The position numbers were made by a program, and so were the translations under genes. The notes under the pieces were generated by a model. That model did no database searches. It saw only the letters and a program-made list of their open reading frames with translations, and had not been told where the DNA came from. DNA of 64,000 nt from NCBI RefSeq assembly GCF_032062105.1, contig NW_026930195.1:1-64000 (forward strand), written 5' to 3'. Source of the stretch: Saccostrea cucullata. Taxonomy: Eukaryota. Shown piece after piece: positions 18,945-41,835 of this stretch; within the stretch, counting starts at the first letter, position 1; each line of letters starts with the position of its first letter.

Positions 18945-19655
18945 TGAGTGCATGTCAAAAGTGGATTTATTTTCTTTGTTGCTAAGGGGAATTTTCTGTT
19001 GCTATGGCAATAAGTACTTGCAAAATATTCCTGGATTCATAAAGAAGTCTCAGAAATATGTTTTTACTTTAAAAATTGATTTTTGTATCCACCGATAAGA
19101 TTTAATTCCATAAATAACTCGCATATTTGACAATTTGTCTCTTTCTCTTAATCAAAACATCCATTTTTGTTGCTAGGCAACCGATTGTAAATATTAAAAA
19201 ACACACGTTTTTGAATTTAAATTCCAAAAGGGAAATTCCTCTGCTTTTATGTAAAATATACCATACTCTTGTATTGTGCGGGAAGTTTGAGATATATGGC
19301 CTTGAAAATTGCCCAAATTTACAAAAATGCTGAATCAGCAAAAAATGCAAAACATGCATATCTTCCATTGCCCGTAAAAGAAATATCTTAGAATAAAAAT
19401 AGTATGTATTGCATGGTTTTATCACTTGAAATGTTTATATTTATGATAACATTATTTAAGAACCCCTCTGGTAATATTCACATTAAATTTCAAGAAATTG
19501 AGAATATATTTATATAGGGTTTGAATAATTAATTTATTTGGTTCATAAGTTCTCACAACCCGGAGCAAATAATTTTCATTTTACATACGTGGTTCAGCAG
19601 AATACCTATGTGTGTACATCAGATAGATTTGTTGAAGAATCTATAAATGATTATC
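18945..19655. repeat. Right arm of the inverted repeat plus a direct copy of about 10110-10260
   Basis: 18945-19495 is the reverse complement of 10480-11040; 19500-19655 repeats TTTATATAGGGTTTGAATAATT...TCTATAAATGATTAT. Confidence 0.8.
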
Positions 19656-19788
19656 TAATTACCAGGAGAAAAGTATTAGGTTATATATATTTTCCAGTTA
19701 ACTTACATAAGTTACAAGCAAATACTTTGAGCTTGTTCCTTGTTGAATATAATTTTATCAAAGAGAAAGGGGAATAATGTAAAATAAC

Positions 19789-19924
19789 NNNNNNNNNNNN
19801 NNNNNNNNNNNNNNNNNNNNNNNNNNNNNNNNNNNNNNNNNNNNNNNNNNNNNNNNNNNNNNNNNNNNNNNNNNNNNNNNNNNNNNNNNNNNNNNNNNNN
19901 NNNNNNNNNNNNNNNNNNNNNNNN
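19789..19924. other. Assembly gap (N run)
   Basis: 136 consecutive N. Confidence 1.
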
Positions 19925-20017
19925 ATAACTGGTTTTCCAATTTCAAATCCGGAAATAAAAAATCAATACGGGTTCATACTTTAAGTCATTTGGCGCGCTT
20001 TTAGTAAGCCTTGCAAG

Positions 20018-20806
20018 ATGGAGAGGAAGAAGCCACGCTCGTCATCATGGTCACGTATTTTATCATGTTTAGTGACAATGATCATGTCTGTAGTAAATGC
20101 ACAATGCGACAATTGTCGCATCGTAGGGAATGTAGCTAATTGCTTAGAGGCTAGGCGAAATTGTGTCTGGATACATACAGATCGTGTGACTGAAGTTCAT
20201 TAGCAGATGCGAGGTCGCGGTCTTATTTTCCCCGCCATTGCTACATGTACCATTGCCCAATATAAGAACAGCATACCACAGATGTGCAATCAGTAAGTAT
20301 GATTGAATATTGTATTGAACAGTGAATGTGTCAATCAGCATTATTGCATTTTGAGATTTCCCATCATTGCATCAAGTGTTTGACCTCGATCTCCTAGCTC
20401 TTGATTTTCATTGGTAGAACCGCGTTAACCTTCACCTTTAGGAAAGGGGGATATTTTCAAAAAGGTTTTTTTTTAACAAGCAAGTGTAGAAATAAATAAA
20501 TGATAAAAAAAATCAACATATTTTTATTTTATAAATTATGAAGACTATTCTGGTATGAGAGAGGATAAATCTAATTATGTCTAGTTGAAAAACAAATAGG
20601 GCATCTTCAAAATGATGATGTGTAAAGTACACAGCAGAATTTTTTTTGCTTAGCTCAGCTCTGACCTGGAATGCCTGGTCTCTTATCAACCCAGAATCAA
20701 CTAATGATAATAAGATCAAAGAAAGGGGAGAAGAATCAATGCCTAAAAATATAGAAACAAGACTTTGTTTTATTAGACAGTTATCTGTTGAACCTTTGTG
20801 TACATA

Positions 20807-20854
<48 letters not shown>

Positions 20855-22341
20855 AAAATAAAAAATATACTAGAAATCATAAAAATATTAGATATATTTA
20901 TGTTATAAAGAAAATAGTAAAAGATCACTATGATTAAATATAAAATATACATAAAGAAATTAATAATTAAGTGGTTTTACATGACCAATATCAGAAATCA
21001 TTATTTGAAAAAAAAAAAAAGAATAAAAAATGAAATCAAGTTGGATGACATATTTACTTTCAATTTTTTAATCTGAAATAGATAAAGAAACAACTACCAA
21101 ATTGAGAACTACCATGGGATTGGGAACAACAACTGAGGAACTCATCACTACCAAAAGTCGGACCATGAGAACAGCATCGACAACTAAGGCGAGACTTGTA
21201 ACACTAACTACCAAAAGTCCGACCATGAGAACAGCATCGACAACTAAGGCGAGACTTGTAACACTAACTACCAAAAGTCCGACCATGAGAACAGCATCGA
21301 CAACTAAGGCGAGACCTGTTACACTAACTACCAAAAGTCCGACCATGAAAACAGAATCGACAACTCAGGCGAGACTTGTAACACTACCTACCAAAAGTCC
21401 AACCATGAGAATAGCATCGACAACTAAGGCGAGACTTGTAACATTAACTACCAAAAGTCCGACCATGAAAACAGCATCGACAACTAAGGCGAGACTTGTA
21501 ACACTTACTACCAAAAGTCCGACCATGAGAACAGCATCGACAACTAAGGCGAGACTTGTAACACTAACTACCAAAAGTCCGACCATGAGAACAGCGTCGA
21601 CAACTAAGGCGAGACTTGTAACACTAACTACCAAAAGTCCGACCATGAGAACAGCATCGACAACTAAGGCGAGACTTGTAACACTAACTACCAAAAGTCC
21701 GACCATGAGAACTGCATGGACAACTGAGGCGAGACTTGTAACACTAACTACCAAAAGTCCGACCATGAGTACAGCTAATAGAGTTAGCGCTGCCTTTGTT
21801 ACTACGCCTGTGTCTAAGGAGGTGACCACATTTGCGTTGAAAGGTATTTCGCATTTTATTATTTATACTATGTGTTTAAACTTTTTCATACAAATAGAAA
21901 GAAGATATGTTTAGGGGAAAAATTTACCTGGAAATGTTTTTGATTCGTAGAATTTATATGAATATATGTAAAATTAAAATGTATATTCAATGTTGAAACA
22001 ATGTAATTAATTTGATGTTTTCAGATATCATGATGTTAACGCTGGAGAGTGTTACTCCTTTTTTGTTGATCATCATTTTAATCATATGGTATGTATGGAA
22101 ATGCGTGTTCAGCAACAAATTAACTGCAACAGCAACTCCCACAACATCTACCTCTTCCACGGAAGCCTCTACCAGTGCAACTACTGCATCTCAAACGGAA
22201 CTGCCAGCTTCTCCCTGTTCTTCATCACTTTCTTATGAAGTTGAAGACCGAGGTGTACAGGTTACACCAACACGCCCTCTTGTAGAAGAAAGAAAACAAC
22301 CTGAGAGGAAGGTTAAGAAGAAGCTTCCATTTAAAGTTTAA
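20018..22341 (+). CDS. Spliced mucin-like type I membrane protein (possibly disrupted; possibly Polinton cargo)
   Basis: Signal-peptide-like N-terminus plus Cys-rich segment from 20018. Thr-rich repeat exon about 21082-21843 is spliced in phase 1 (AAG/GT...TTTTCAG/AT) to exon 22025-22341, which has a TM helix (FLLIIILIIWYVW) and a basic tail. In-frame TAG at 20201 and the first splice phase is unresolved. Confidence 0.6.
20816..20851 (+). repeat. (GA)n microsatellite
   Basis: About 18 GA units. Confidence 0.95.
21148..21772 (+). repeat. Coding 60-bp tandem repeat (TTKSPTMRTASTTKARLVTL, about 10.5 copies)
   Basis: CTACCAAAAGTC recurs exactly every 60 nt, 11 times. Confidence 0.95.
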
Positions 22342-23743
22342 CTGTGGATTGTGTCTCAAATTGCATTAAAAAAAATCTTATACATGTAGGTTGCGGATAT
22401 ATTTGTTTTAACAATATAAAGATAATTTTAAGAGTAAATGAAAGTCTAAGTATCCCTTGTGGATGATATTTGTTTTCTAAGACAATGATGGTATTTTTAA
22501 AAATCATTTTATTTAGATAAGATTTTTTTTTAGCTCAGCATTTTGTGTAAGGGTTTTTTTTTTTGTTTGTATGTGTACATGTACACATCTCCATATTTTT
22601 ATGCAATTTGTTTCAAGAGTAAGTGGAAGTCTTAAGTATCCTGGTAAATGATACTTGTTTTCTATTACAATGGTGGTATTTAAATTTTTTGGTTTTGTTT
22701 ACTAGAGAAGATTTTTTGTTTAGTTTAACATGGTGTGTAGAGGTTTGTTTTTACATACACACATGCACACATTTATTGGCAATTTGGTATAGTGTTATGT
22801 ACAAGTAGCAGTAGTTTTGATTTTTAGTAGTTATTATAACTTTTATTGTTCATTTTTCTTTTGAACAATGCTTTGATTTGTTGTTTTAGGTAATCTTTTT
22901 ACTCATTCAAATCAGTATTATTTTAAATTTATTAATTTCTTGTGGACAAGATTAGAAAAATAAATTCTGAGACTGACTGAAAAGATAAGCTAGGTAAATA
23001 AAGTAAAAACGTAAGATAAAAAAAGAAAAGAAATATCTTCCTATAAACATTCCAATCTGTAGTGTAATATTTAGTGTATTTAATGCTAGTCCCTTATTTT
23101 CTATTCCATCCTCTTTGGTTGTGATTTTTTGTTAAAGAAATAATTTGAAAAATATGCAATTGATATTTTAAAAGATATACATGTTTTTTTGTTTGTTTTT
23201 TTTTTTTCGAGTATAAAAAAAAAAAGAAGTGCCAATAATTTTTGAGATTGATTTTTTTTTTTGTAATTTTCCAAAGTAATTGTATGAACAGTTGTTGTTT
23301 TATACATGAGGTTTTTCATGTAAAATAAAAAGAAAAAAAAAACATAAAAATGCGACATGTTTGTTTAATTGTTCATTCCATTTTTTTTTAAATGGTGCTA
23401 ATCAAACTTTTATATTGTGATATTTTAAAAAAAACACACAAGTGATTGTTTCTGTGTATGATGTTTGTTTTTATCTGTGATTTTTCTTTTTATTTTATTA
23501 TTCTTTTTGTCAGTATTACAAATAAGCAGAGAAACTGCATGTTCCATTCTTTTTTTTTTTAAATAAAGATTTTATATTCCGACAATTGTTATGTTGTTTT
23601 TATCAGGATATTGAGGATTAAAATGGTTTGCAATATGTTATACAACCTTTCTGTTGACTTCAGAGATGAAAAAATTAAATAGCACTTCCTCTTTCATAAA
23701 GCAAGTTTTTAATATTTGTATATTTTTTCCAGAATGATCTACA

Positions 23744-23947
23744 ATGAATACATCCAGGACAAAAGTTCAGTTTAGTGAGATAGTAGTGGAGTATGATATA
23801 TCTCCTGATGAGGATAGGAAAAGTCCCTGGATTCAGATGGCCATTGATCGTGCTCATTTTCAGAGACGTATTAGTTTGTTAAAAGTGAAACTTGAACCTT
23901 TAATGCAGCAAAAGTTAAAACACCTAAAGGACAATGTAAATAAATAA
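23744..23947 (+). CDS. Minimal PPP1R15/GADD34-like (ICP34.5/DP71L-like) PP1 regulatory subunit, 67 aa
   Basis: RVxF motif KVQF, then R.SPW..MA.DR..F.RRI, matching the GADD34 C-terminal pattern KVRF...RQGPWEQLARDRSRFARRI. An in-frame upstream TGA fixes the start. Confidence 0.85.
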   Translation: MNTSRTKVQFSEIVVEYDISPDEDRKSPWIQMAIDRAHFQRRISLLKVKLEPLMQQKLKHLKDNVNK

Positions 23948-23975
23948 TCCAAATATATAAATTTAAGCTTAGAAA

Positions 23976-26900
23976 ATGGAAGGTGAAGGTTCACTTTTAA
24001 AGGAAATCTTAAATTGCTTTGAAAATGAAGAACTTTTGCAATTTTTTGCAAGCTTTCATGGCATTACAGGGGATCCAGATGTTGAACACCGTTTGGAAGA
24101 GCTACGTAGTAATGGAATCCCTCCTAGTGATTTAATAAAGTCATGTATGCATAAAGATGTAGAGGAAAATGGTATTTCATTGTGTAAAAAATTTAAATCA
24201 TGTGAGAGTGAAAGTTGCCACAATTCACTTCAAGTAGGAAGAGGTGAAAACAACTTTCCTTCCACTGATCATGTTAAACCATATTATATATGGAAAAAAG
24301 ACCAGAAAACTTTTAAAAAAAATTTGGCCAAAGACACAACATACAAAATAAAGTTTAATGACAAATGGCGTGGAGAAAAGTTACTAGACATTTACAGTAA
24401 ACTCCACGATATGTTTGATGATGTTTTACAGCAGGCTAGAGGTCACGATGCAGATTTAGGTCGTGTAGTCCTAAGTCACCCAGATTTAATAAACCCTATT
24501 GTAATACCCCTCCAAAGTTGGGAACATTTGAATGCAGACACTGTAATGAATGAGGTTACAAAAGTACTCAACTCAAATGAAGATATAAAAGTAGATGATA
24601 GCTTAATGGTTACAGTTGGATCTATTGATATGCCAAAAGGTGGGGCAAAATTACCAATAACAACATTACTCGGATCAAACAACTCGTTGGAGAGAAAGCA
24701 TTCTACTTTTCATGTTGAAAATGACAACAACAGTTGTCTTGCAATTGCAATTGGGATATGTTTTTTAAAACTATGTGAAAAACTTGACTCTATTAACTGG
24801 AAATCTTTTAAAGAACAGAATACTGGATTATCTAACCTTGAATTAATTATTAAACATCGAAAGGTTTCTCTGAAATTTTACGAGAACATGTTGTTAAAAA
24901 AACGTAAATCAGCTCAGAAAAAGATGGCAACGTTCCTTTGTAAGAAAGCAGGTGTACCCACAAATAGATATTTAGGTTTAAACGACATTCCTATGTTCGA
25001 AAAAATTTTGGATGTAAATATTTTGGTAGTTTCCTCTACTGTAGGTAACAAATTTGTGAGAGTGGTTGAAAATAATGAAAAATCAAATTTATATATATAT
25101 CATGTGGAAAATGGTAAAGAAAAACATTGGCATGGAATCGCAAATATACAAGGGTTTTTCAAAGCTGCATATTTCTGTACGAGGTGTTTAAAACCATATA
25201 AAAGTAGACAAAATCACGTATGCGAAACTACCTGCAATGTGTGTTTGCGGGATAGTTGCTTAGACAGAGGGGGGGCAATGAGTTGTCGTTCGTGTGGTCG
25301 AGTGTGTCGATCGATGGAATGTTTTAGAATTCATAAAAAGAAGAAAACGATCAGAGGTAAAGAGTACCCGAGTCAATGCGATTCTATTTATCAATGCAGA
25401 ACATGTAAAAAAACAATAAAAAATTTGGAAAGAATGCCTGAGAAGCATGTATGTGGTGAGTGGAAATGCACTACATGCTCTCAATACCAAACACATGAAC
25501 ACTTCTGCTTCCAAAGAGGAATGACTGTGGATTTGAAAAAAAGAAATAAAAAATTTATCTTTTATGATTTCGAAACTCGACAAGATGAAACCATACAATG
25601 TGAAAGGGGATTTCGACCATCACCAACAAGATGTAGGAAATGTGTTGGTCATGAATATCAATGTAGTGATTGTCGACTCTGTAAGAATTGCCGCGAACCC
25701 CCCTGCGGTCTCTCACAACATAAAGTAAATTTTGCAGTTTTACAAAAAACTTGTTATAAATGTGAGAATGTTCCACTAACACCCGAATCAACATGCGCTA
25801 ACTGTGGAACACGTTGTAAAAATTGTTCGAAGAGTGTGAAAAATTCGTTTGTAAACCCACCATGTGATAACAAATGCGGAAAACGAGAAATTGTGTTTGA
25901 GGGGGATGATACCGCAGAACAGTTTTGTTCTTATATCACACAAGAGCACAATGCCGGTTCAATTTTAATTGCCCATAATGCAAAAAGTTTTGATTTATAT
26001 CCTGTTTTGGAAGTTCTGATTGATCGTCACTCAATAAGACCTGATAAAATTATTTACAATGGTTCGAAAATTATGTATATGCACGTGGGAAGAAAACTTA
26101 ATTTAACATTTCTAGACTCATTGAATTTTCTGCCAATGAAATTGGCCAAAATACCTGAGACATTTGGATTAAATGAATTGTGCAAGGGGTATTTTCCTCA
26201 TTTGTTTAACACTCGTGAAAATCAAAATTATATTGGTTCTTATCCTGATCCCCTTTATTTCGGTGTTGAATCGATGCAAGCATCAGAGAGAAAAAGATTC
26301 ATGGAATGGTATGAAACCAAAAAAGAACATGAAATATTCAATTTTAAAAAGGAGATGTTGAAGTATTGTAGATCGGATGTTGACATTTTACGTCGTGGTT
26401 GTTTGGAATTTAGACGAATCATGATTAAGGTTACACAGAAAAAAACTGTGGACAGAAAAGACGACGGTACATTGAAAATATCAACAACTCTTGGTGTTGA
26501 TCCATTTGACCATGTTACAATTGCTAGTGTTTGTATGGCTATCTATAAAACTCTTTTTCTGGAGGAGGAAATCGAAATAGAAATTAAAATGTCTGACTCA
26601 ACCAATCCAATATCCAAATGGTATAAAGTTTTCACTGATGGGAATCAATCCAAATTCATAGAAATTGGGGATAGTAAATTTTCCTTGGATGTAATTAGTA
26701 AAGACCCTAACTTTCAAGTTGGTCAAACACGATTTCTTAAAAGCCCAATAGCAGCTGTTCCTTCTACTGGATATGTTGCTAGAGATAATTACAGTAAGAT
26801 TTCCATACAATGGCTAGAATGGGTTATGGAAAAAAGTCGTTTAAACGGCATACCCCTTCATATACGCCATGCACTTAATGGAGGAGAAGTTCACATACCA

Positions 26901-28666
26901 AGTACAAACTACAGATGTGATGGTTTTTCGGACTATACAAAAATACAAACAAAGAAAGGGACGATATACGAATTTTATGGTAAAGTATTTTACCTTATTT
27001 TGTTACATAATTGATAACATTAAATAATAATGAAATTATAAGTTTTCACTCATTTTTTTTTGTAGGTTGTGTATTTCATGGCTGTCCTAGCTGCTATCCA
27101 GATGATAGAAGCACCCTGAAACATTCATCGACAGGGCAATCAATGGAAGAATTATACACCATTACTAAGAAACGAGAAAAGGAATTAAGGGCATTAGGGT
27201 ACATTATAGTTTCAATTTGGGAGCATGACTTTTTGAAACAATTGAAAACGAACAAGGTTTTGAAAGAATACGTTGCAAATCTAGATATTCAAGATAGACT
27301 TAACCCTCGAGAAAGTTTCTTTGGAGGGCGCACAAACGCAATTAAACTTCATTACAAAGCAAAAGATGATGAAAAAATTCATTACTATGACTTTACCAGT
27401 CTGTATCCTTGGACTAACAAGTATAGTAAATATCCCATTGGACACCCCGAAATTTTAACAGACGACTTCAAAGACTTATCCCAGTATTTTGGATTAGCAA
27501 AAGTTAAAGTATTACCACCAAAAGGATTATATCATCCAGTCCTACCCTACAATTCAAATGGCAAGCTGAAGTTTCCTCTGTGTAAAAAGTGTGCAGATGA
27601 AGAAAACCAGGATACATGTACATGTTCTATTGACGAAAGGTGTATTATCGGAACGTGGTGTACCCCAGAATTAGAACTAGCAATTTCAAAGGGATATGAA
27701 GTTTTAAAAATTTATGAAATATACCATTTTAAGGATGCTACACAGTATGACAGATTTTCTGGTCAAGGCGGGCTCTTCTCTCCGTATGTTAACATGTTTC
27801 TTAAAATAAAGCAAGAGTCGTCTGGTTTTCCATCGGGATGCATTTCATTAGAAGATAAACTTGAATATATTCGTCAGTACGAAGAAAATGAGGGCATTCA
27901 ATTAGAATATCATAACGTAAAGAAAAATCCAGGTTTACGCTGTTTAGCAAAGTTATGCCTTAACAGTTTCTGGGGAAAATTTGGACAAAGATTGTTGATG
28001 CGACAGTCAGAATTTATTCACGAATCGGAAGCAGAAAAGTTTTTTAAACTTTTGTCTGACGTTCGAAAAAATGTGAATAATTTTCATATAATCTCAAATG
28101 ACACAGTGCAACTAGAATGGATAGAAGATCCCTTGTTTCCAGGAGTTGATAACAAGACCAACATTTTCTTGGCGTCGTTTACGACCATGTGGGCACGATT
28201 GAAATTATACAGTGTTCTGGACATACTTGGAGAAGATGTCTTATACTTTGACACAGATAGTATAATCTTTAAATCCAAAATTTCTGACGATCTTCGTCGA
28301 CTGCCCATTGGAAACTACCTAGGTGAACTTACGAATGAAATAAAACCCCAAGATGGATTTATCACAGAGTTTGTATCGGGTGGACCAAAAAACTACGCTT
28401 ACAGGACATTGTCAGGAAGAGAAGAATGTAAAGTTCGAGGATTTACCTTGAATTGGAAAAACTCGAAACTTATAAACTTTGATGCTATTAAAAGTATGAT
28501 TTGTACCGGACAAAACGACTCTGTGACAATTACGAACCCATGTAAGATATCCAGAGACAGTCGAAAAAGAAAACTTTTCAACCGAATCGAAGAGAAGAAA
28601 TACCAAATGGTTTATACCAAGCGTAAAATCTTAAGTAATCTGGACACACTTCCATATGGATATTAA
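23976..28666 (+). CDS. polB: Protein-primed family B DNA polymerase, join(23976..26979,27066..28666), 1534 aa
   Basis: Exonuclease motifs FYDFET, AHNAKSFD, YCRSDV; polymerase motifs YDFTSLYP, KLCLNSFWGKFG, YFDTDS. An 86-nt GT-AG intron restores YEFYG/CVFHGC. Confidence 0.95.
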
Positions 28667-28845
28667 CTATATACAAGTGATTAAGATAATCAATGTTTTA
28701 TTCAATAATTGATTAAAATAATGTTTCATTTCTTCACGCTTTTAAAATAAAAATATTGAACACACAATATCGTTTTCATTTATAAAAAATAAAAAAAAAA
28801 GAAAGAAGAGTTTTGTCGCATTCATTCATTGTAGAATTTAAACTG

Positions 28846-29151
28846 TCAGTATTTTATCCAATTAATACTTCTTATTCTGTCAATAGTACTAGTCCTCCTT
28901 CTTCTGGTGATTTCACGGATACCCGGTGGACATCCTTTGATTTGTTTTGGCGTAAATGTCTGTAATTTCTGCGTGCAAGTATCTTCCTCTTGATCATGTA
29001 TGTCAACATTTTCGTTTAAATCCATTTTATTCTCAGATGTATGTTTTAGAGAATCACATTCACTCATCTCTTTTTCCTGGCTATTATCTGTATCCAATTT
29101 GATAATTTTTTGGTACTTTTGTTTGGGGATAAGAATTAATTCCCTAGCCAT
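28846..29151 (-). CDS. Polinton hypothetical protein, 101 aa
   Basis: ATG ORF overlapping the upstream gene by 8 nt; acidic middle, Arg-rich end. Confidence 0.65.
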   Translation of the reverse strand: MARELILIPKQKYQKIIKLDTDNSQEKEMSECDSLKHTSENKMDLNENVDIHDQEEDTCTQKLQTFTPKQIKGCPPGIREITRRRRTSTIDRIRSINWIKY

Positions 29152-29473
29152 TTCGATCTAATCTATCAAAATATTTCACGACTGGATTTAAAATCCAGAC
29201 TAAAAGCTTAGGATTTTTTAACAAAATTGCACGTTTTCGTTTAGACGTTACTTCTTTTGAGCCAAGAAGACGAATGAATGAACTAAAAGGTTTCAAAATT
29301 TTTATGTATCTTCCGTGTAATGGAAAAGATCCTGTATATATGTTCATTGCTATTTCGCTAATAGCATGTAATTGCTGCTCTGTAAGTGTTTTGATAATTG
29401 CCCGCTGTTGATTGAGATCAGCACGAGTGAAAAATCTAAGAAATAATAATTCCCTCCGTATTTGTCGAGTCAT
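29144..29473 (-). CDS. Small basic helical Polinton protein, 109 aa
   Basis: AIIKTLTEQQLHAISEIAMNIYTG resembles the small conserved ORFs next to Polinton ATPases. Confidence 0.75.
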   Translation of the reverse strand: MTRQIRRELLFLRFFTRADLNQQRAIIKTLTEQQLHAISEIAMNIYTGSFPLHGRYIKILKPFSSFIRLLGSKEVTSKRKRAILLKNPKLLVWILNPVVKYFDRLDRNG

Positions 29474-29511
29474 TGTTCCGAAATACTAGATTTTCAAATT
29501 GTAAATCCTTT

Positions 29512-30195
29512 TTAAATAGGTTGATAAATTGTGACATCTTCATTAGGAAGTATATGTGATCTTAGCTGATAATTTTTATCCTGATTTGGTTCTAAGCAGA
29601 TATGTAAATATCCATATTTTTCACGCGTAGCAGATTCATATGCCGATTTAAAATAGATTGAATTTCCCGGAAAAAGTTGAGAACCTAATGTAATGACCTG
29701 ACGACAGTCTCTATAGTTCTTAAATAAAATTACATTGAGGCAGTTTAATGAAATCGTTCGAGCATATTTTCCTGGAGGATAAAGATTTTGAGTCAGAAAT
29801 ATTACACTGATATTACGATGATGGCTAGTAACAGTAAAAAGCTGTACACATTCCTTCGATTCTGCAATTTTTATCATAAGGTCATCCAAAACTAATATTG
29901 TATGATTCGATTCTTCTGAAAATAGCTCGATGTCTTCATTAGAAGGAAGGCCTTTGTGAAACGTTATTTCAGGTATAGTTTTTTTCATCTCATCAAAGAT
30001 TTCTTGATATTCAGAATATGCATAAACTATCTTTTGTGCTGGCCGTATAAACATTCCATATGCACATTCTAATAATTGCTTTGTAAAGTACGTTTTTCCA
30101 CTCTGAGTACTACCACTTATTAAGATGGTAGTTGGTACTGAAAATGGAATCAAAGCCTCTTTTTGCCACCAATTAACAGTAGATACCTGCTCCAT
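29512..30195 (-). CDS. FtsK/A32-like genome packaging ATPase
   Basis: Walker A GSTQSGKT, Walker B ILVLDD, SHHRNISVIFLTQN. Confidence 0.95.
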   Translation of the reverse strand: MEQVSTVNWWQKEALIPFSVPTTILISGSTQSGKTYFTKQLLECAYGMFIRPAQKIVYAYSEYQEIFDEMKKTIPEITFHKGLPSNEDIELFSEESNHTILVLDDLMIKIAESKECVQLFTVTSHHRNISVIFLTQNLYPPGKYARTISLNCLNVILFKNYRDCRQVITLGSQLFPGNSIYFKSAYESATREKYGYLHICLEPNQDKNYQLRSHILPNEDVTIYQPI

Positions 30196-30302
30196 GTTAC
30201 CACTAAAGCAGTAAATAATAAACTACAAATTATTTGTTCCGTCCATCTATTTTATTTAAAAAAAAGAAATTAATATTTCTACTAAACAGACTATATTATA
30301 AT

Positions 30303-30764
30303 TTACCTAAGATATCTGAGCATAAACTTATATACATACATGTCATTCATATGTAAATCATTCGTAAAACTAATGTACACATTTAAAAAAGACTTCTTGA
30401 AATACAATCTCATTATCAAAAAATATAACACATACAATCCACAAAAATCTGATCCTCTGGACTGAATCCTTTGTTTGTTAAAGGTTACTTTGCTACTATT
30501 CCTTTGCAAAAAACTTGCAATATCTCGATTTTGAGACGGAGATTGTCCAAGACTATCAAAATACTCAGCATCAGAAGCATTGCGAATAATGATGGCAACC
30601 CAGTGTTTACCCGGTAGCGGTAAAGGTTCAGTGTTAACAATAAAAGCACTTGGATATTGAGAAACCTTATTTGGTAAGGTATTACATGCAAACACACCCT
30701 GTACAAAATTATCAAAAAGATTATTATTATTTTTAATAATATTTTGCAACTGTAACGTATTCAT
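30303..30764 (-). CDS. Adenain-like (C5) cysteine maturation protease
   Basis: Catalytic motifs GKHWVA, YFDSLG and IQ....DFCGLY are intact. Confidence 0.95.
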   Translation of the reverse strand: MNTLQLQNIIKNNNNLFDNFVQGVFACNTLPNKVSQYPSAFIVNTEPLPLPGKHWVAIIIRNASDAEYFDSLGQSPSQNRDIASFLQRNSSKVTFNKQRIQSRGSDFCGLYVLYFLIMRLYFKKSFLNVYISFTNDLHMNDMYVYKFMLRYLR

Positions 30765-32077
30765 GGTTGAATGTAGTTGATATCACGAGCTTTGTTAATT
30801 TCAAGCAAGGCTGAGTAAGTTGAAAATACCACGGCGTTTAAGGCTTCTGTAGTAGCAGTCTTAAATTTCAGCTCTACTCTAGTATTTCCACGACGTATCA
30901 AGTTTATATACTCTTCTCCAAATCCACAAGGATTGATAGTAAACACGTAAAATGCATAACCTTTCCCAAAGTCTTCTCTGTCTATGTATAAGCCTGTATC
31001 TTTGTTCCACTTTCCACAAGGTTCAAATAATCGCGCATAGGCTGAAGCATAGTTTCCAGCTTCGAAGTCCAATTTTAATGGTCTACCGGGTATACTTTCA
31101 CCGTTAATATAAACACCCACATCTGTTATTGCATACGGTGCAAAATTGAATGGATTGGCTGAGTAGTCTCCATTAACAGCACTTTGAGACAATAGACCAA
31201 TTATTATACGATCAGGTACAGCCTGTGGGAATATATTGTCCCAGTAAAATTCCGTAGATCCTTTCGGTATGGTATTCATCTTCACTTCGTTTCTTGGTAA
31301 AATATATTTGGCTGGGGTAGATTCTATCTGTTTACTGTGATTGATTAATACTCCAGGATCAACTCTCACTTTTGCAACTTTATACACAACATCTAAAAGT
31401 TCTAGTTTGTAAGCAGGGGATGCCTCCGCAGACATGATAATAAATGGTATGCATGATCGGAATAATTTCATGTAAATATCTACACCATTGATAAGGTACT
31501 TATCAAGGTCAAATATATCTTCCATTAAGCTTCCTTCCATTTCAAAAACATTGCTTTTCTGTGTATAAGAATATCTTTCGACTAAGCCTGCATTTCCGCC
31601 ATTATATGCATTTGGATCTGCTAAATTCCCTTCGTCTTTTGTAAACAACTGCGATTGTTTCTGAGATAACAATTCATCTCGACCGCTAAATAATACGGTT
31701 TTCATATAAGCTTTCCAAGGGTAGTTGGTAGTATTCAGAGATATTAATTTGTTATTCAAATAAATATCCATCTGGGAGAAGATGCTTTGTAAAGGCAAAT
31801 TTATTATTCCGGTTTTTTCAGCCGCAGCCAAAGCTTGACCATCAGCTTTTATAATCCTAGCTTTAACATACAGTTTACTTTTCCTGAGATCAATATATTC
31901 AGCTCCTGCTCCAGACACAACAATTTCAATTGGAGTATCTGAGGCACTTATATTAGAAATCGGTCTTGCTTCCGTATAATAAACCTTTTCAACTGCAACC
32001 TGATTGGATGGGGAGGCAAAAAGGGAAAGTTCCATAGGCTGAGCAATCTCTTGGTTTTCACTGCTAAGGAATGACAT
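30761..32077 (-). CDS. Double jelly-roll major capsid protein (PY/hexon-like)
   Basis: 438 aa, beta-rich; ELSLF..P..Q, EYIDL..S.LY, P..IIIGL, NPFNF and FGKGYAFY.F motifs typical of Polinton MCP. Confidence 0.9.
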   Translation of the reverse strand: MSFLSSENQEIAQPMELSLFASPSNQVAVEKVYYTEARPISNISASDTPIEIVVSGAGAEYIDLRKSKLYVKARIIKADGQALAAAEKTGIINLPLQSIFSQMDIYLNNKLISLNTTNYPWKAYMKTVLFSGRDELLSQKQSQLFTKDEGNLADPNAYNGGNAGLVERYSYTQKSNVFEMEGSLMEDIFDLDKYLINGVDIYMKLFRSCIPFIIMSAEASPAYKLELLDVVYKVAKVRVDPGVLINHSKQIESTPAKYILPRNEVKMNTIPKGSTEFYWDNIFPQAVPDRIIIGLLSQSAVNGDYSANPFNFAPYAITDVGVYINGESIPGRPLKLDFEAGNYASAYARLFEPCGKWNKDTGLYIDREDFGKGYAFYVFTINPCGFGEEYINLIRRGNTRVELKFKTATTEALNAVVFSTYSALLEINKARDINYIQP

Positions 32078-32089
32078 TTTTTTTCTAAA

Positions 32090-32626
32090 TTATTTTTTGA
32101 AGATGGTCCTGAAACTGTCAATTTTAAATTCCCTCTTTTTTGAAGTTGTATTTTTTCTTTTTAATTTTCCAACATTAGTTATTTTCTTTTTCTTCGTTAT
32201 TTCCTTCTTTTTCGGTGATTTTTTCCGATTCAATCTTAAAGTCTTGATTTGCTTAATGTAAGTTTGCTGTGATTTTTTCAAAGGTACGCTCTTCTTGGTC
32301 TTCTTTATTGAAGTGAAATTGATATCACCGAGGTGCCTTTTTATACCCTTTTCCAATTCAACATGTGGATTTCCCTCTTGAACATCCTTTTCATGTTCTG
32401 AGATAGCTCGTTCTTCGACGGAAGCTAAAGGAGTTACCAGCTTAGTTGTTTCAGGGTTTTCAAACTGTGCATGTGGCTTTACAGGAATTGAATACGACTT
32501 CTTAATATTACTACCTCTCCCTGTCTGTTTTGGTTTGTACATATAAGGATTGAATTTCTTTTCAGCCATATTTTTATAGAAAGTCTCCCAAAGTTTAGGA
32601 TCGCTTACGTATGTTTGACTATTCAT
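32090..32626 (-). CDS. Lys-rich putative core/DNA-condensing protein
   Basis: Very basic C-terminal half; N-terminal W..FY..M...QTGRG motif; lies between the two capsid genes. Confidence 0.75.
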   Translation of the reverse strand: MNSQTYVSDPKLWETFYKNMAEKKFNPYMYKPKQTGRGSNIKKSYSIPVKPHAQFENPETTKLVTPLASVEERAISEHEKDVQEGNPHVELEKGIKRHLGDINFTSIKKTKKSVPLKKSQQTYIKQIKTLRLNRKKSPKKKEITKKKKITNVGKLKRKNTTSKKREFKIDSFRTIFKK

Positions 32627-33051
32627 TATAAAACAAATGGAATTTTTTTCAGGTGAAGCGTTATGGTCACTGGAGCGTCAAAAAAAGAAATGAGATTTCC
32701 AGCTCTGTCAGTGAGTTTTATACTAATTTGCTGAATTTGGGTATTTTTTATAGGTACATAATATGGTGAAGTATATATAATATTATCTTCTTTTCTATCT
32801 CCCAGGAAAATTCTTCTTAATAATTGCATTTCATTACCTCCTATAAATGTTTCCTCACAAATGTCACAACAAACATATATTTCTGATTTCTTTTGAGATG
32901 GAATCCAGCTTTTTGTAGAAAATTCAGTTAAACCTATCACCCAATAGCCATCAAATTGTATCTGCTTATTAAATTGAGCCCTAAAGCACTGAGGCCTATT
33001 ATCAAAATATTCTGTACTGTCTGTTGATGCTAACACCATCCGTAGACTCAT
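32626..33051 (-). CDS. Single jelly-roll minor capsid protein (PX/penton-like)
   Basis: S..YF.N....F, GYWVIGLTE, IYVCCDI, LLRRI, YVP, I.I.LTD..G and TLHLK motifs. Confidence 0.85.
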   Translation of the reverse strand: MSLRMVLASTDSTEYFDNRPQCFRAQFNKQIQFDGYWVIGLTEFSTKSWIPSQKKSEIYVCCDICEETFIGGNEMQLLRRIFLGDRKEDNIIYTSPYYVPIKNTQIQQISIKLTDRAGNLISFFDAPVTITLHLKKIPFVL

Positions 33052-33093
33052 GTTGAATGGAAGAAATCCATTTGAACACTTTAATTTATTTAT

Positions 33094-34218
33094 TTATTTA
33101 TAATTTTCAATTGATCTCTCAGGTAACCAAGAGTTAAACTTCTTTGGCCACCCTTCCCATTTAACCAAGACCTCAGTCTGCCCGTTTCTTTTCCTTTTTT
33201 GAAGCACTTTTTCTATGCGATAGAGAATATCGTCAGGTTTTTGAATTTTTTGCAGCTCATACTGATAAAATGTTCCCTGGATTGGGTCATCCATAAGATC
33301 ATTCAGCTTATAAATAGGTATTTTCCCTCGCAAATAACGTTTCACCACTTTGAAATATTCCTCTGACCATTTTTGCTGATAGTCTCTTTGAAATGCACGT
33401 TTCAGTTGTGTCATTCTTACATTATCACCTATTTTGAATTTAAATATTGTTTGTTTTTTCTTTCCTTTGCGCTTTGGATCATTATTTTGTTTTCCTTGTG
33501 CTAAATACACAGATAATCTAGTTTCGTCTGCATTTTCGGGTTTTACGGAGGCTGGACTTAGTCCACCGAGAGATCTGTGGGGTCGTTCATTGTAACTTTC
33601 TACAAGTTTTTGTAAAATTTCTACGTATCGATAGGTTTGGTTTTTAAAAAAATACCGATACATCATATTTTTTATTGTTCGTATTACTCTCTCCGCATAA
33701 TTAGCTTTTGTTTCATTTTGAGTATATATTATATTCACATTTTCTTTCACTAGATATGACTTGACCCATCGATTCTTAAACTCACTTCCCTTGTCACTTC
33801 TTAGAACTTGGGGTTTTCGACCATATTTAAATATTTTCTTCAACCCATCTATGATATTTTGATGATGTTTTGATTTCAATGGAATAATGAATAAAAATCT
33901 ACTAAATATATCAATTAAAACTAGTAAGAATCTAAATCCATCGTTTTCTGACGCAATGTTGCCAACATCGGCCAAATCACCATCCCACATAGAATCGATA
34001 GTGTCGACAATAACTTTTGAACGATGAAATTTCCTTCTGATTGGTTTAAACAAACTGTATGCGTCTTCATTATTGAGAAACTGTTTGATTTTTCCTCTAC
34101 CGAGTTTATATTTTCCTTCCTTCTTAACAATTTGATACAGTTTGTCCGGCCCTGAAAAAGCAGCAGGACTACCAGGATGAAAATATATTTTCTTTAGGTA
34201 GTCTTTATAGGTTGACAT
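33094..34218 (-). CDS. Retroviral-like (rve) integrase with C-terminal chromodomain
   Basis: DDE triad GDLAD / RSDKGSEF / AERVIRT; chromodomain YRIEKVL...VLVKWEGWPKKFNSW. Confidence 0.95.
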   Translation of the reverse strand: MSTYKDYLKKIYFHPGSPAAFSGPDKLYQIVKKEGKYKLGRGKIKQFLNNEDAYSLFKPIRRKFHRSKVIVDTIDSMWDGDLADVGNIASENDGFRFLLVLIDIFSRFLFIIPLKSKHHQNIIDGLKKIFKYGRKPQVLRSDKGSEFKNRWVKSYLVKENVNIIYTQNETKANYAERVIRTIKNMMYRYFFKNQTYRYVEILQKLVESYNERPHRSLGGLSPASVKPENADETRLSVYLAQGKQNNDPKRKGKKKQTIFKFKIGDNVRMTQLKRAFQRDYQQKWSEEYFKVVKRYLRGKIPIYKLNDLMDDPIQGTFYQYELQKIQKPDDILYRIEKVLQKRKRNGQTEVLVKWEGWPKKFNSWLPERSIENYK

Positions 34219-34546
34219 ATCTTTTCAAGTGTGTAATATGTTTGATATATTGCTCATTTTATATCATTTTTTTAGCAACAAAAAAAAAAAAAAAACAAAA
34301 CAAAACAAAATAAACCTTACATTCATTTTATTTTTAAAAGATCGCATATTCTCAAACATGTAATGAATAAAATATATTTTAAAAGATTTAATTTTTTTTA
34401 AATATATTTTTAATTATGCATACATAAATATGATTTAATATTGTATAGATTAAAATCAAATACAAAATACAAAGTGTGCAAAAGATATACATATAAAATA
34501 TTATCTCTCTATATATAAATTGTCATTCCGATAGAAATGTCACTTT

Positions 34547-35020
34547 TTAATTTGATGAACGTGTTCTGTTCATAGAAAATCCGATTCTTGATAAATTCTG
34601 CCATTGATGGATATTTACAAGAGGAACGCAAATGTCATTTTCAGTTGGATAATCATCCTGACATTTCTTTAATTCTATTCCCATACCATCTTTTGAAACA
34701 CAGGTTCTCAAAAAAACATTAACAGGGAATTGTGACTGTTCCTTAGGGTGACAGGTTTTGTTCTGGCGCAACTTTTCAAACTTCCCTATTGCACTATTTG
34801 ACATGGTTAGAGATCTTCTGTTTGACTCTTTAGACAAGTTAACAACTACAGAAGTCAAAAACAGGACGATAAGAATCGTCATACCAAATAATTTAGTAGC
34901 TGCAATGGAACTTTTTAACCTGTCTTTAGATGTTGCTGAGAGGGTTTTATTATAATTCTTTATAATGTCATCTACAAATGGAGCAAATTCCTTTTCCGAA
35001 ATAGCAACAACCTCAGTCAT
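34547..35020 (-). CDS. Single-pass (type II-like) membrane protein with a Cys-containing, PC4-like C-terminal domain
   Basis: Hydrophobic LFGMTILIVLFLTSVVV; four Cys and four NxS/T sequons after the TM; NVFL...IEL...PT...N..QW..L pattern. Confidence 0.7.
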   Translation of the reverse strand: MTEVVAISEKEFAPFVDDIIKNYNKTLSATSKDRLKSSIAATKLFGMTILIVLFLTSVVVNLSKESNRRSLTMSNSAIGKFEKLRQNKTCHPKEQSQFPVNVFLRTCVSKDGMGIELKKCQDDYPTENDICVPLVNIHQWQNLSRIGFSMNRTRSSN

Positions 35021-35107
35021 CTTTGTATTCTTTTTAAATAACCCATTTTTTGAATTCTTAACACTTATATATGAAAATGTTTAAATTGTTTGCATCTGAA
35101 TAACTCT

Positions 35108-36118
35108 TCAAAAGTCAAATCCAATGCAAATGTCCTCTTTTTCAGAGTCGTTGTCATCAATATTGAGGGATGATATCTCCTGTTCAGAATCGTCTGCGTT
35201 ACATTCCATTGAAAGAGATTTCGATTCTTTTGGAAAGGGGGTGCATTCTGGGCATGAAAGCATTCCCTCTTGGTTCTGATGGGATTCACTAAACATACAA
35301 AGTTCTACATTGTTTAGTTCAGGGACATAATCATGAAGCTCTTGTAAAGCAGCTTTTAATCGAGCAAACATTGTCTTGTTAAGACATACTCCTTTCTTGG
35401 TAGGTATTGGACTTTCAACGCTCTCTGGTTTCCAATAATGTCTTACATCAACTGTAGCAAACTTTGGTGTTAAGGAAACAAATACACCTCCTCCAATATG
35501 CCATTGTATTTCCGCAGACTGTCTCCAGTAAGTTTGGAGATAGGTGTCAATCTCCTCAATTAATGATTCAAATTTCACCCAGCGCCCTAGGTTAAACGTG
35601 GCTCCTCTTTTTGATGGGAACATTCCTCCATTATTCTCTATGAAATGACGTAAATGGATAATAATATCACCTCTGTAAACTGTGGCCGTCAGGAAAACGT
35701 TATTTTTTTCATCCAAATTTATCTTACATCTTGTTTCTGTTTGCTCTTTTCTTTGATGCGGAGTGTTTGTTCCTTTTTTGACATCAATTATTAGTGATCG
35801 AGCTGAAGCTAACTTCTTTTCGTATTCTGTCAATGTGCTGTCGTCATAATCATTCAGTAGGAGTTTTGATAAATTAAGATGCCCCGATTTCATAAGTGCC
35901 TTGTGCAAACCTGTGAAAGCTTTGGGTCCTCTCCGTAAAATGATGCTTATCAATTTTCTATTTTGTTCGTTGTTAGTTCTCTGTGAGCTTATGGTTTCTC
36001 TCATGTCTTCTGTAATAATCCCGTCTTCATAGAGTCGCTGTGCCACCCAAGTTGCAGTCATATTTTTTACCAGAAGTGAGTAGTTTTTTTTAATGATTTC
36101 TTTGTGCTTGTCATCCAT
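35108..36118 (-). CDS. CARD-PC4-PC4 fusion with C-terminal C/H/CxxC motif
   Basis: Residues 1-87 fit a CARD (L...GIIT.DM.E.I....T..EQ.RKL..I..RRGPKAF..L..AL...G...L..LL). Two PC4-like units (IHLRHF...PSKRG..F....W and VDVRHYW...PTKKGVCL); CMFSESHQNQEG...CPEC. Confidence 0.85.
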   Translation of the reverse strand: MDDKHKEIIKKNYSLLVKNMTATWVAQRLYEDGIITEDMRETISSQRTNNEQNRKLISIILRRGPKAFTGLHKALMKSGHLNLSKLLLNDYDDSTLTEYEKKLASARSLIIDVKKGTNTPHQRKEQTETRCKINLDEKNNVFLTATVYRGDIIIHLRHFIENNGGMFPSKRGATFNLGRWVKFESLIEEIDTYLQTYWRQSAEIQWHIGGGVFVSLTPKFATVDVRHYWKPESVESPIPTKKGVCLNKTMFARLKAALQELHDYVPELNNVELCMFSESHQNQEGMLSCPECTPFPKESKSLSMECNADDSEQEISSLNIDDNDSEKEDICIGFDF

Positions 36119-36189
36119 TCTGACAGGTGTAGACTACTTTTTGCAACAAATGAAAATTCAGTTTCAATTTCTCCTTAAATAGTAGAATT

Positions 36190-36453
36190 TAGTAGGTCAG
36201 GTCATCTAAATAGGTCATGTATCCTGAGGAAAAAGGTCGACCTAATAATTCGCAATTGAGGTCATGACCTGATTCATTATTTGACCTGACCTACTTAAGT
36301 GACCTAAGCCTCCGTGTTTTGACCTACTTAGGTGCCTATGACCTCGGTGACTAGTGTTGACCTGACCTACTTTGGTGACCTTGACCTCAGTGACCTGACC
36401 TTGACCTCATTTTGGCTTTAGAAAAGTGAGTGTCAGGTATACCCTATGCTGCT
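36190..36453. promoter_or_regulatory. Polinton right terminal region with a TGACCT/AGGTCA array
   Basis: More than a dozen TGACCT/AGGTCA hexamers; terminus reads 5'-AGCAGCATAGGG on the minus strand. Confidence 0.7.
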
Positions 36454-37486
36454 CAAAAGACAGTCTTAACAGTATCCATAATCAAGTCAAAAGACTGCCT
36501 TAACAGCATCCATAATCAAGTCAAAAGACTGTCTTAACAGTATCCATAATCAAGTCAAAAGACTGGGGGAGATGTAATTTTCCAATTCTTTGCAATCTGA
36601 TTTAACTGTAATTTCAGTCTTGCCAACTGCCTCATTCTCTGTGATATATTGCGAGTCCTTCTTGGCCCCAACTGATTTATGAGGATTTTCCCAGACACGA
36701 GGATCAATTTGTCACTGACAACAGCATCATAGATCTCGTCTTGCCTCATTTTGGTTAGTATCGTGTCTTTGATTTCTGCTGGAATGTCGTCATTAGATGG
36801 CATGGGTTCCAAGCTTCCACCAAGAAGCAACCTAGCAATGATTCCCTCTTGATGACTGGCATCATTCCAAAGGCAACTTCTTGCATGTCGCCATGATTCT
36901 TTTTTTAAAGAAAAAGCCGAAGGAGTATACACATGGCAGATAGTTTTTGTCAAATGACTTCCTTTGCTTGACCTTTGACATACTATTAAGGAATTTAAAA
37001 CCTTTAAATTATACTTGAGATTTCCTACATTTTTAAACTTGTCCAGGTGTTTCTTCTATTCTTGTTTTGATATTTTTTACAATGTCTCTGCTACATGTTT
37101 TTCTTTTCCATGTTTTTTTTTATTCTTTGACGCAAAACTTTCAAACAGTGATAGCATGATAATGTTTTATTGTAGCGTCTTTTTCCAACTGGTTTAAGGA
37201 TCGTCTTCACTCGAACTAAAATAATATTTTATCTTTGATTATAGCATGGTTAAAGCTTTTTGTGAATGGAAAATACTGTTTTACATACAAAGAAACCACA
37301 GCATCTCCTTAATTAAAACCCACTGTGCATGGACAAAAGATGCACACCAGAGACAAATTTATCTTCCCTCGTAATTAATATACAAATAAATGAAATCTAT
37401 AGAAAAAATTCGATAATCTGTGTTTTATCTGGTGTTGTATTGTATATTTAACAAGACAGACTGCGATCGTCGTTAGTAATAATTAT
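36454..37486. repeat. Near-identical segmental duplicate of 42114-43146
   Basis: Identical ORF translations (36555/42215 and 37015/42675); the copies diverge after CGTTAGTAATAATTATA. Confidence 0.95.
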
Positions 37487-38761
37487 ACGGAAAGCGGAAC
37501 GGAACGGAAAACGGAATTTTTTGTCAAACAAATAACATATAGATTCGATATAAATCAGATAAAAGAGCAATATTATTGTTGTAAAGGTCATTTCTAATAA
37601 AAATTTATTATAGACTTTTACATATTCATGAGTTATACACACCCTCCGTGGAAAAAATTATACTGAAAGAAATTCGACCCCCCTCCCCCTTCCGACACGA
37701 ATTAGGATTATCGTATTTAGGCAAAGGCATATCCCCCTTTTTTCGCTTGTCAAATTTGTTGTATGTTGGAAATTATTTACTGACCCCCTCACCTCTCTTT
37801 CTATTTGTTTCCAATATCAATGTTTTTTTTAGACAAAAATAACTAGCTATGATATTCAGATTATGCACGCAGTGTCGAATTCACGATTCATGAAAGGGGG
37901 AGTGGCAGTTTCGGGTCAGTGTAGGGGCCCACAGGCACATTAAAAATTGATTTATTAAACCTAACATAAAAAGAGGGGCAGATCGATTACAACTTTTCGG
38001 ACCTTTCCGATGAGCGGGAAAACAAACTCATTTTTTACGGGGTTATTGATTTACACCCCCCTACACACATATGTGACGCAAACAAACAAAATTTAACTTC
38101 ATTGAATGCAAAGATTCTGCATTATATATCTACCACATGGAAGTTTTCCAACTTTCTGTCTCCAGAATTTAAATAATTATATAGAAAGCAACTCCATTTT
38201 GAATAAAATCTTAACAACCAGTGTGTATAAGAGATGTTTATTCGAGCTTGTTGTAAAGGTTTGCCCAAACCGTAATCTTAATAATTATTCTAAACATTTT
38301 ATTTCCCTGTCCATGGTTCTTCTAGATATCAAATATTTGCCCCCCCCCCCCCCCCCGTCATAACCTTTTTACTACGGAATTGTTCGTTCAAGTTGACATC
38401 GTTAAATTTTTTGTGAATGTAAATTAATGTAGTAGTTACTGTAGTCTGAAAGATGTTAGAGTTGAAACTTATTCCCCCAACCGAATCAAACAATTGTTTT
38501 CTTTTTGTGTTTGCTTGTCAAATACTTTAAGAGTTCGTTTACCCCCCCCCCTTTTCAAATTCGATTCTAGGTGACTGATATGTTTGTAAATAAAAGACTG
38601 AGCATGGCAATATCAACTTGTATTTAATAGTGGTGAATTGAATGTGTACAAGATATAGCATTTATGATAAAATTTGTATATTTTAAGTGATTTAATCCAA
38701 AAAATTATATATTCCGTTTTCCGTTCCGTTCCGTTTTCCGCTCCGCGTTTTAGCAACACCC
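37487..38761. mobile_element. Non-autonomous TIR element, left terminus truncated
   Basis: (CGGAA)n at left, (TTCCG)n-CGCGTTTTAGCAACACCC at right; same family as 1-278. Confidence 0.7.
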
Positions 38762-38879
38762 GGTTTAAATATATATGCAAACCTACTAAGCCCCTCATCT
38801 GCCGCCAATAACAGACTCCCCACTTTTGCAATTTCAATAGCTGCATCATGCTGCCTGTAAAAGCTTTTGTGGGTGTTAA

Positions 38880-39268
38880 GGACAGATGATACAAACAAAT
38901 AAATGGATGCCAGAATTGGTATTTCTTTTTTGGCTTAATTTCATTGAAAATGATGCAAATAATATATTTCTAGAATAAAAAAAAAATTATAAACCTTCTA
39001 TGATGTTCAAATGTCTGCCTCTGAAACCATCCTTATTACAAATATTTTTCACTTCAAATTCAACTTTTGTGAAAATTTGACTTCATATTTAAAAACTACG
39101 AACTTAAACTTGTTCAGTTTATTATATTTTTCACTTCAAATTCAATTTTGGTGAAAATTTGACTTCAAATTTAAAAAACTACGCAGTTAAACTTGTTCAG
39201 TTTATTCATTAAAGCATGGCTCAAGTCGTTATATTTAAGTTTTTGACAAAAGTTTGTATCATCTGTCC
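38880..39268. mobile_element. MITE with TTAA TSD inserted in the recombinase catalytic exon
   Basis: TTAA-GGACAGATGATACAAAC...GTTTGTATCATCTGTCC-TTAA; removal gives in-frame HDINTHKSFYR. Confidence 0.9.
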
Positions 39269-41488: not shown

Positions 41489-41835
41489 TTAACAGTACTG
41501 CGTTCTGGACTCATCTCTACCCCTTTTCAATTTATGTTTCTAGATGAAGTTTGAGATTTACTTAGTCGCAGGTAGTTGGCAGGACAGAAGGCTTATTAAA
41601 TTTGTTGGTCCTTAATGATGGCAGAGCAATTGAGGATATTGAGGTTGTCCATTCAGCTGAATGCAGTTGAAGAAAGTCATCTGCACTTTTCTTAACCAAT
41701 GTGTCGTTTTTCCTCAAAGCTACTCCTCGTAGAATTTCCGCAGCTTTAACAAGATTGTAGCCGATGGTTATTGCAAACGAAGGGATTTTGAAGATGGAAA
41801 TCTGCTGTTCAATTCTGGCTAAACCAGGAAATTGC

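Follow-up and report, generated by a model that had tools for sequence, protein, structure and literature searches.

Introduction

A standing question is whether the Mavericks (Polintons) of animals are inert transposons or act as viruses exposed to host immunity. Several described proteins resemble the product of the Maverick gene reported here. Equine herpesvirus 2 E10 (vCLAP) is a viral CARD fusion without PC4 domains and is a BCL10-derived activator of NF-κB. In the oyster Crassostrea gigas, the protein CgCARDCP-1 reportedly contains a CARD and two PC4 domains. The title of the paper on it, as cited in PMC9223095 and PMC9330033, presents it as an LPS-recognising NF-κB activator (Wang et al. 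2018, PMID 29751033). The first of these, a scallop paper, refers to it as an oyster PC4 with expression in haemocytes and mantle and treats the PC4 expansion in bivalves as host evolution (PMC9223095).

The iridovirus vCARD (GIV-CARD), encoded by a large DNA virus, consists of a CARD alone (91 aa) and has no DNA-binding domain. It inhibits apoptosis and lowers caspase-8 and caspase-9 activity (PMC4457926). Adintoviruses have been reported to carry Bcl2 and IAP homologues (PMC8502044), and mollusc Polintons with VSR-bearing polymerases have been described (bioRxiv 2023.08.22.554363). The adintovirus gene MOSUB is known from Branchiostoma (lancelet) and Bos-associated insect adintoviruses (Starrett et al. 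2021, PMC8502044), and the map in the searched part of the supplement places it beside the ITR. The words "card" and "caspase" do not occur in that part of the supplement.

The gene described here encodes a 336-aa CARD-PC4 fusion rather than a stand-alone CARD, although it may act in a similar way to vCARD, and like MOSUB in that map it lies next to the terminal repeat. CgCARDCP-1 is described as a host gene; here the family is a Maverick gene. The architecture is probably already in print as CgCARDCP-1, and the gene was probably mistaken earlier for an oyster immune gene. The CARD-PC4 fusion is a conserved Maverick gene built from two known kinds of part. No literature linking CARD, PC4, or CARD-PC4 to Mavericks or Polintons was found in a search that left subscription journals, Repbase, and bioRxiv supplements outside its scope. 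Term searches of PMC11662393, PMC8328476, and bioRxiv 2024.03.25.586562 returned nothing relevant.

Results and Discussion

The Element and Its Right End

The window, defined here as the whole 64-kb stretch of Saccostrea cucullata DNA that was analysed, contains a Maverick/Polinton (adintovirus-like) element with the CARD-PC4 gene inside its right end. Features are listed in Table 1. This copy reaches left to approximately position 19492, and no left terminal repeat of the Maverick was found within the 64-kb window. The terminal inverted repeats fit the AG...CT ends of Mavericks, with TGCTGCT at the right end. The right-end repeat is also the left end of two sister copies on other contigs (C10189 and C6105).

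Identity with two near-identical copies (99.1% and 99.7%) stops at approximately 36452-36453, and the flanks differ beyond this point. The start codon therefore lies approximately 334 bp inside the right end, and the CARD gene is the first gene inward, as the initial annotation had it. This order holds for the present copy; a small PP1-binding ORF stands between the CARD gene and the right end in 6 of 11 related elements.

Two other placements of the ends were rejected. An AGGTCA cluster at 6408-6434 matches nothing at the right end and was dismissed as a left terminus. An element running on past the repeat at 36453-43147 was dismissed because the sister copies diverge at 36453. A 6-bp target-site duplication is present at the CARD-less element C22279 and absent at C18125; the left end is missing in this copy. 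C22279 (L057-L059) has AGTAGT ends and terminal inverted repeats longer than 5 kb, with two-repeat PC4 and PP1 ORFs in both arms.

Table 1. Features of the Maverick and of its CARD-PC4 gene (window coordinates).
Feature	Position	Strand	Basis or remark
Maverick extent within the window	19492..36452	.	
Right terminal inverted repeat	36174..36452	.	TGACCT units, ending TGCTGCT
CARD-PC4-PC4-C/H/CxxC-acidic tail gene	35108..36118	minus	336 aa, single open frame
CARD, residues 1-90	35849..36118	minus	Pfam and AlphaFold2 model
Two PC4 repeats, residues 128-268	35315..35737	minus	predicted to form one intramolecular Pur-type ssDNA-binding domain
C274/H280/C289/C292 knuckle	35231..35314	minus	predicted zinc-binding; also in the CARD-less family
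Acidic C-terminal tail	35111..35230	minus	low-confidence; 13 D/E and 3 K/R among its 40 aa
157-aa ORF with hydrophobic segment	34547..35020	minus	between CARD gene and integrase
Maverick integrase with chromodomain	33094..34218	minus	rve 1.4e-10, Chromo 1.1e-8
Probable minor capsid (penton) protein	32626..33051	minus	named from position and size; no significant Pfam match
Probable double jelly-roll major capsid protein	30761..32077	minus	weak DJR-like Pfam match, E 0.065
Adenain-like cysteine protease	30303..30764	minus	Peptidase_C5 4.6e-5
A32-like packaging ATPase	29512..30195	minus	Pox_A32 5e-4, below curated cut-off
Protein-primed DNA polymerase B, two ORFs	23976..28666	plus	DNA_pol_B_2 E 2e-18 and 2e-24
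Predicted GT-AG intron between polymerase ORFs	26980-27065		86 nt
67-aa PP1c-binding protein (GADD34/ICP34.5/DP71L-like)	23744..23947	plus	KVQF motif; PF10488 E 2.2e-10, above cut-off

The probable major capsid protein is 75-83% identical in sister elements, and its size and position fit a capsid. A gap at the intron position of the polymerase gene recurs in related elements. In C1504 (L037:7222-7683), a small ORF with a hydrophobic segment lies upstream of the PP1 ORF and gives a weak single PC4 match (E 2e-4), which hints that ORFs of the 157-aa type may be PC4-related. The left arm of the element contains a probable spliced membrane glycoprotein at 20018-22341 on the plus strand. Its beginning is rich in Cys and signal-like, and it has tandem repeats of 60 nt that are rich in Thr (21027-21926) as well as a hydrophobic segment. 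Related elements also contain Thr-rich ORFs.

Domains of the CARD-PC4 Protein

The initial annotation had divided the protein into a CARD in the first ~87 residues, two PC4-like repeats, and a C/H/CxxC tail, and each part was recovered. Pfam CARD matches residues 7-87 with an E value of 1.3e-12 (48 bits against a cut-off of 23.9), and the CARD signature motif RRGPKAFTGLHKAL corresponds to residues 62-75. Pfam PC4 matches two stretches with an E value of 1.6e-12 (47 bits against a cut-off of 25). The residues C274, H280, C289, and C292 are each at least 90% conserved in an alignment of 97 sequences.

A full-length AlphaFold2 model was built with 47 homologues and has a pTM of 0.47. It contains a confident helical N-terminus and a confident beta-rich middle with a low-confidence linker between them. 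Residues 1-90 model as a helical death fold with a pLDDT of ~80-96, and this part aligns with the Apaf-1 CARD over 90 residues (Z 17.8, rmsd 1.1 Å). Residues 125-300, which comprise both PC4 repeats and the C274/H280/C289/C292 knuckle, reach a mean pLDDT of 95.5 when modelled alone with 97 sequences.

The PC4 Region and MOSUB

The PC4 part is a known Maverick gene. Its top viral structure match is adintovirus MOSUB (E 1.3e-6, TM 0.66), and other Mavericks carry MOSUB without a CARD. MOSUB models match the PC4 part alone, whereas a full CARD is fused in front of it here. CARD-less ORFs with both PC4 repeats, ~170-235 aa in length, lie near an integrase in 10 of the 15 contigs examined. Intact orthologues of this CARD-less kind are widespread; at E<1e-10 the query is matched by 352 representatives.

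The same fold occurs in PC4/Sub1, in repeats I-II of Pur-alpha, and in a phage T5 PC4 homologue. The beta-rich middle of the full-length model aligns with PURA repeats I-II at Z 14.1 (rmsd 3.8 Å over 134 residues). The two-repeat domain aligns with Pur-alpha at Z 11.6 (3.5 Å over 129), with the T5 homologue at Z 7.3, and with human PC4 at Z 5.9. PC4 is a homodimer of single repeats, in contrast to the two repeats in one chain and the C/H/CxxC knuckle found here. Two repeats per chain is the type I layout of Pur-alpha (PMC7549692).

Residues R86 and W89 of human PC4 align with R226 and W229 in repeat 2; repeat 1 lacks an equivalent of W89. In PC4, W89 stacks on DNA (PMC4350104). R157, K170, R226, W229, and K242 are kept in 47 of 47 homologues. 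Binding of the region to ssDNA is predicted from the MOSUB/Pur-type fold match and the kept R226 and W229.

Copies, Genomic Context, and Selection

The CARD-PC4 gene has 91 matches in this genome (120 scored of 126 candidates). Genomic context was covered for this genome and four metagenome contigs. The integrase lies directly downstream in 13 (11 of 11 plus 2) of the 20 other CARD-bearing contigs with flanks examined. Of the remaining seven, two end at the edge of the contig, three contain nothing beyond a truncated CARD and the PP1 ORF, one has a fragment of the polymerase, and one is a broken copy in which no core gene was seen. Gene order is shared in all four CARD-bearing metagenome contigs.

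These contexts bear on the idea that the gene is a host gene or a domesticated oyster immune sensor, as CgCARDCP-1 is taken to be, that merely lies inside Mavericks. Annotated host loci exist in Saccostrea, Magallana/Crassostrea, Ostrea, Mytilus, and Pinctada, and the citation of CgCARDCP-1 as an expressed oyster PC4 points the same way. Against this, each of the 10 intact copies that were analysed in this genome is a single ORF with a Maverick integrase next to it, and the 120 scored candidates include no intact copy standing alone. The CARD-bearing elements also form one clade in the capsid tree (below), and host caspase CARDs span two exons. We regard a host gene as very unlikely.

Selection was estimated as Nei-Gojobori dN/dS among the 10 intact copies (45 pairs). 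For the CARD, the median dN/dS over the 20 of 45 pairs with finite dS is 0.21; the corresponding value for the PC4 repeats, from 25 of 45 pairs, is 0.16. pN is smaller than pS in 44 of 45 pairs for the CARD and in 45 of 45 for the PC4 repeats. Both domains are under purifying selection.

Sixty homologues were found, and those with names come from Saccostrea, Crassostrea/Magallana, Ostrea, and Pinctada; the closest named one is a Saccostrea cucullata protein at 99%. Pfam CARD is present in 12 of 58 more distant proteins, which were chosen mainly by length, the named ones being from Pinctada and Mytilus. A Haliotis homologue has a partial CARD by our own profile. The Atlas holds a CARD+PC4 cluster of 61 members, mostly molluscan. 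A homologue search with residues 1-92 returned only 3 close copies, and no stretch of the diverse homologue alignment was conserved enough for a scan.

This genome also has several broken or truncated copies, as would be expected of a host CARD that had been inserted by chance and was decaying neutrally. The CARD dN/dS of ~0.2 refutes that reading, and the fusion is retained over 25-99% protein identity and several bivalve genera. Neutral decay is thus extremely improbable, and the fusion is neither unique to this copy nor drifting.

Of the 93 Pfam CARD matches in this genome, 25 lie on positions of the CARD-PC4 family (assigned by hand). This matters for shellfish immunology, in which counts of gene families, and one or more genes published as a "host immune gene", may have to be reinterpreted.

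Origin of the CARD

A FastTree phylogeny of the two PC4 repeats was built from 151 rows after 25 of 176 had been dropped for short coverage. In it, a single clade of 37 (support 95) holds 27 of the 31 CARD-bearing proteins. Eight of the 10 CARD-less rows of that clade, which start at most 10 residues from the domain, may be fragments. The four CARD-bearing outliers allow for further captures.

In the capsid tree the CARD-bearing elements form one clade (8 of 8, support 100), and in the integrase tree 10 of 11 group together. The exception is C5768, in which no polymerase matching that of the window was found in the stretches examined; a large ORF with an endonuclease VII match is present instead. 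Its misplacement and its different large ORF suggest movement of the fusion between lineages. The Maverick in C5768:44000-64000 (L101, L050) is divergent, with a capsid ~39% identical, and its CARD-PC4 fusion has no CxxC tail.

The nearest host CARDs are those of bivalve CARD-caspases of the caspase-2-like kind. The best host match is a scallop caspase-2-like CARD with 49% identity (76 bits), and bivalve caspase CARDs are up to 49-50% identical to the viral CARD. Apaf-1, the best PDB match, was rejected as the donor because its identity is 22-23%, compared with at most 49-50% for the bivalve caspases. A quick tree over 89 columns groups the CARD with bivalve caspases weakly (support 82). Two "host" rows of this tree are not clean: P0230 is a truncated family member, and L108 lies in a virus-like island.

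On this comparison of sequences, a host caspase is the likely source of the CARD. In the oyster's own caspases the CARD is divided between two exons, which makes capture through mRNA plausible. Bivalve caspase CARDs are joined to a protease domain; the viral fusion has none, its R13, D27, and D58 are replaced, and it is net basic.

A gene-dense island at C5660:1-19000 (L181, L096) contains a CARD with one stop that is sister to the C5768 Maverick CARD (support 97). It also carries a TRAF zinc finger with MATH, LDLa repeats, and two BIR domains. No Maverick core genes were found in C5660:1-19000 by tblastn. The island is possibly what is left of a different large DNA virus that carried its own set of death-signalling genes.

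Remodelling of the CARD Surface

The CARD of the window has Y13, Q27, and S58 at positions where caspases have R13, D27, and D58, and it keeps R54. Host caspase CARDs have R13 in 17 of 17, D or E at position 27 in 16 of 17, and D58 in 17 of 17. Within the oyster family, Y13 is present in all 42 rows with a residue at that position. S58 occurs in 42 of the 47 rows and R54 in every one of the 47; position 27 is G, E, R, or Q. An aromatic residue at position 13 also occurs in 9 of 29 other host CARDs, and Y13 is not unique to the family.

R13 and R54 correspond to R13 and R56 of caspase-9. These two form the type I interface and pair with acidic residues of a neighbour (PMC13626777). A set of 11 viral CARDs has a median net charge of +7, against 0 in a set of 17 from caspases; the viral rows are related and not independent. 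A basic face with little acidic face could permit docking without extending an assembly. A complex prediction of the viral CARD with a host caspase CARD (P0214) scored 0.00; alignments were not used, and the result is evidence neither way.

The same features may also be read as those of a CARD that now serves a structural purpose within the SSB and has lost contact with host signalling. Its roles would then be an extra basic DNA-binding surface, nuclear import, or a docking site for the acidic tail or a viral partner. The net charge of ~+7 and the joint replacement of R13, D27, and D58 fit such a role. Residues Y99, L103, A106, R107, and S108 of the linker helix are invariant in 47 of 47 homologues, which suggests integration with the rest of the protein. 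However, the intact CARD-less orthologues indicate that the SSB does not need a CARD, R54 and the RRG motif are kept, and the full-length model (pTM 0.47) gives no confident packing between CARD and PC4. Repurposing is in our judgement doubtful.

The PP1-Binding ORF, Expression, and Free Virus

Homologues of the PP1c-binding ORF are present in 8 of 11 related elements and also in CARD-less oyster Mavericks. The African swine fever virus counterpart prevents translation shut-off and activation of the pro-apoptotic CHOP (PMC5346070). By analogy with this pro-survival type in other viruses, the PP1-recruiting ORF would favour a pro-survival programme. No link between Polintons and GADD34 was found among the literature matches listed.

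The ORF weighs on a further alternative, in which ssDNA clusters the CARDs and so activates either NF-κB, with a pro-survival effect like that of E10, or cell death for virion release. A DNA-binding domain joined to a CARD has the layout of a nucleic-acid sensor. The title of the CgCARDCP-1 report states NF-κB activation, and E10 was recovered in the fold search (E 0.015). Set against these points, the acidic face and R13 are lost, which does not suit a two-faced, filament-extending CARD, and the presence of a PP1 recruiter in the element suggests that the cell is kept alive. The CARD of this gene, unlike the BCL10-derived E10, is nearer to caspase CARDs. CgCARDCP-1 is, moreover, only putatively a member of the CARD-PC4 family, which C. 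gigas does encode (P0268, P0338, P0339). An activating role is unlikely.

RNA reads from four runs (X1, X2, X8, and X9) were examined over 22000-36450, and no gene-specific RNA signal was found in these runs over that interval. Two contig sets cover 30 and 29 of 30 bins at a flat low depth, unspliced intron included, which is consistent with DNA carry-over. Two polyA runs yielded only 13 and 43 reads across 14 kb. A scan of viral contigs for free virus returned 5 pattern matches, of which 0 were confirmed.

Proposed Role of the Fusion

In the reading that we prefer, a caspase CARD captured onto a Maverick SSB would act as a one-sided decoy that damps caspase-type death signalling during replication. 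We put the balance of probability for it at about even.

The two PC4 repeats, as one Pur-type domain, would cover the single strand that the protein-primed polymerase displaces, and the acidic tail would behave like that of other SSBs. A single lineage would have acquired the CARD, probably in one event within the main bivalve clade. Its basic helix-4/5 surface (R54, K55, R62, and R63) would have been kept and its acidic partner face lost. The CARD might then dock on a host CARD without passing the signal on. Fusion to the SSB would concentrate the decoy where viral ssDNA, a likely trigger of DNA-damage caspase signalling, builds up. The PP1-recruiting ORF would counter translation shut-off in parallel.

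The initial annotation had proposed either a viral SSB with a CARD decoy or a DNA-templated scaffold that triggers death. The viral origin, the SSB-type fold, and a genuine CARD are supported. The decoy fits better than the death-triggering scaffold because the caspase interface residues are replaced, the acidic face is reduced, and a PP1 ORF is carried along. GIV-CARD serves as a model for such a decoy (PMC4457926). Several points count against a decoy: the change of R13 to Y removes one basic interface residue that it might need, the CARD tree is poorly resolved, the RNA runs gave no gene-specific signal, the scan of viral contigs confirmed no free virus, the CgCARDCP-1 title speaks of NF-κB activation, and most Mavericks have no CARD.

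A broader reading is offered tentatively, with less than even confidence. Bivalve Mavericks would be true viruses with an anti-immune kit, in which the SSB brings a charge-remodelled CARD to replicating DNA and caps death signalling, together with a PP1 recruiter. CgCARDCP-1 and part of the bivalve CARD and PC4 expansions would then be viral cargo. Within this reading the CARD is possibly unmasked only when DNA displaces the acidic tail. A captured death-domain gene held under selection on a replication protein, alongside a PP1 recruiter, is the kind of gene that an actively replicating virus keeps. If true, the coupling of a CARD decoy to a DNA-binding protein would represent a new means of directing immune interference to the site of replication.

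Other Repeats and ORFs in the Window

Two 1,035-nt copies of another repeat, 99.7% identical and composed of 34-nt tandem units, were identified at 36453-37487 and 42113-43147; one of them abuts the right end of the Maverick. Pieces of a Harbinger-like DDE transposase and a Myb/SANT ORF are present at 44448-46639 and 51478-51936. A zinc-knuckle ORF lies at 1517-2020.
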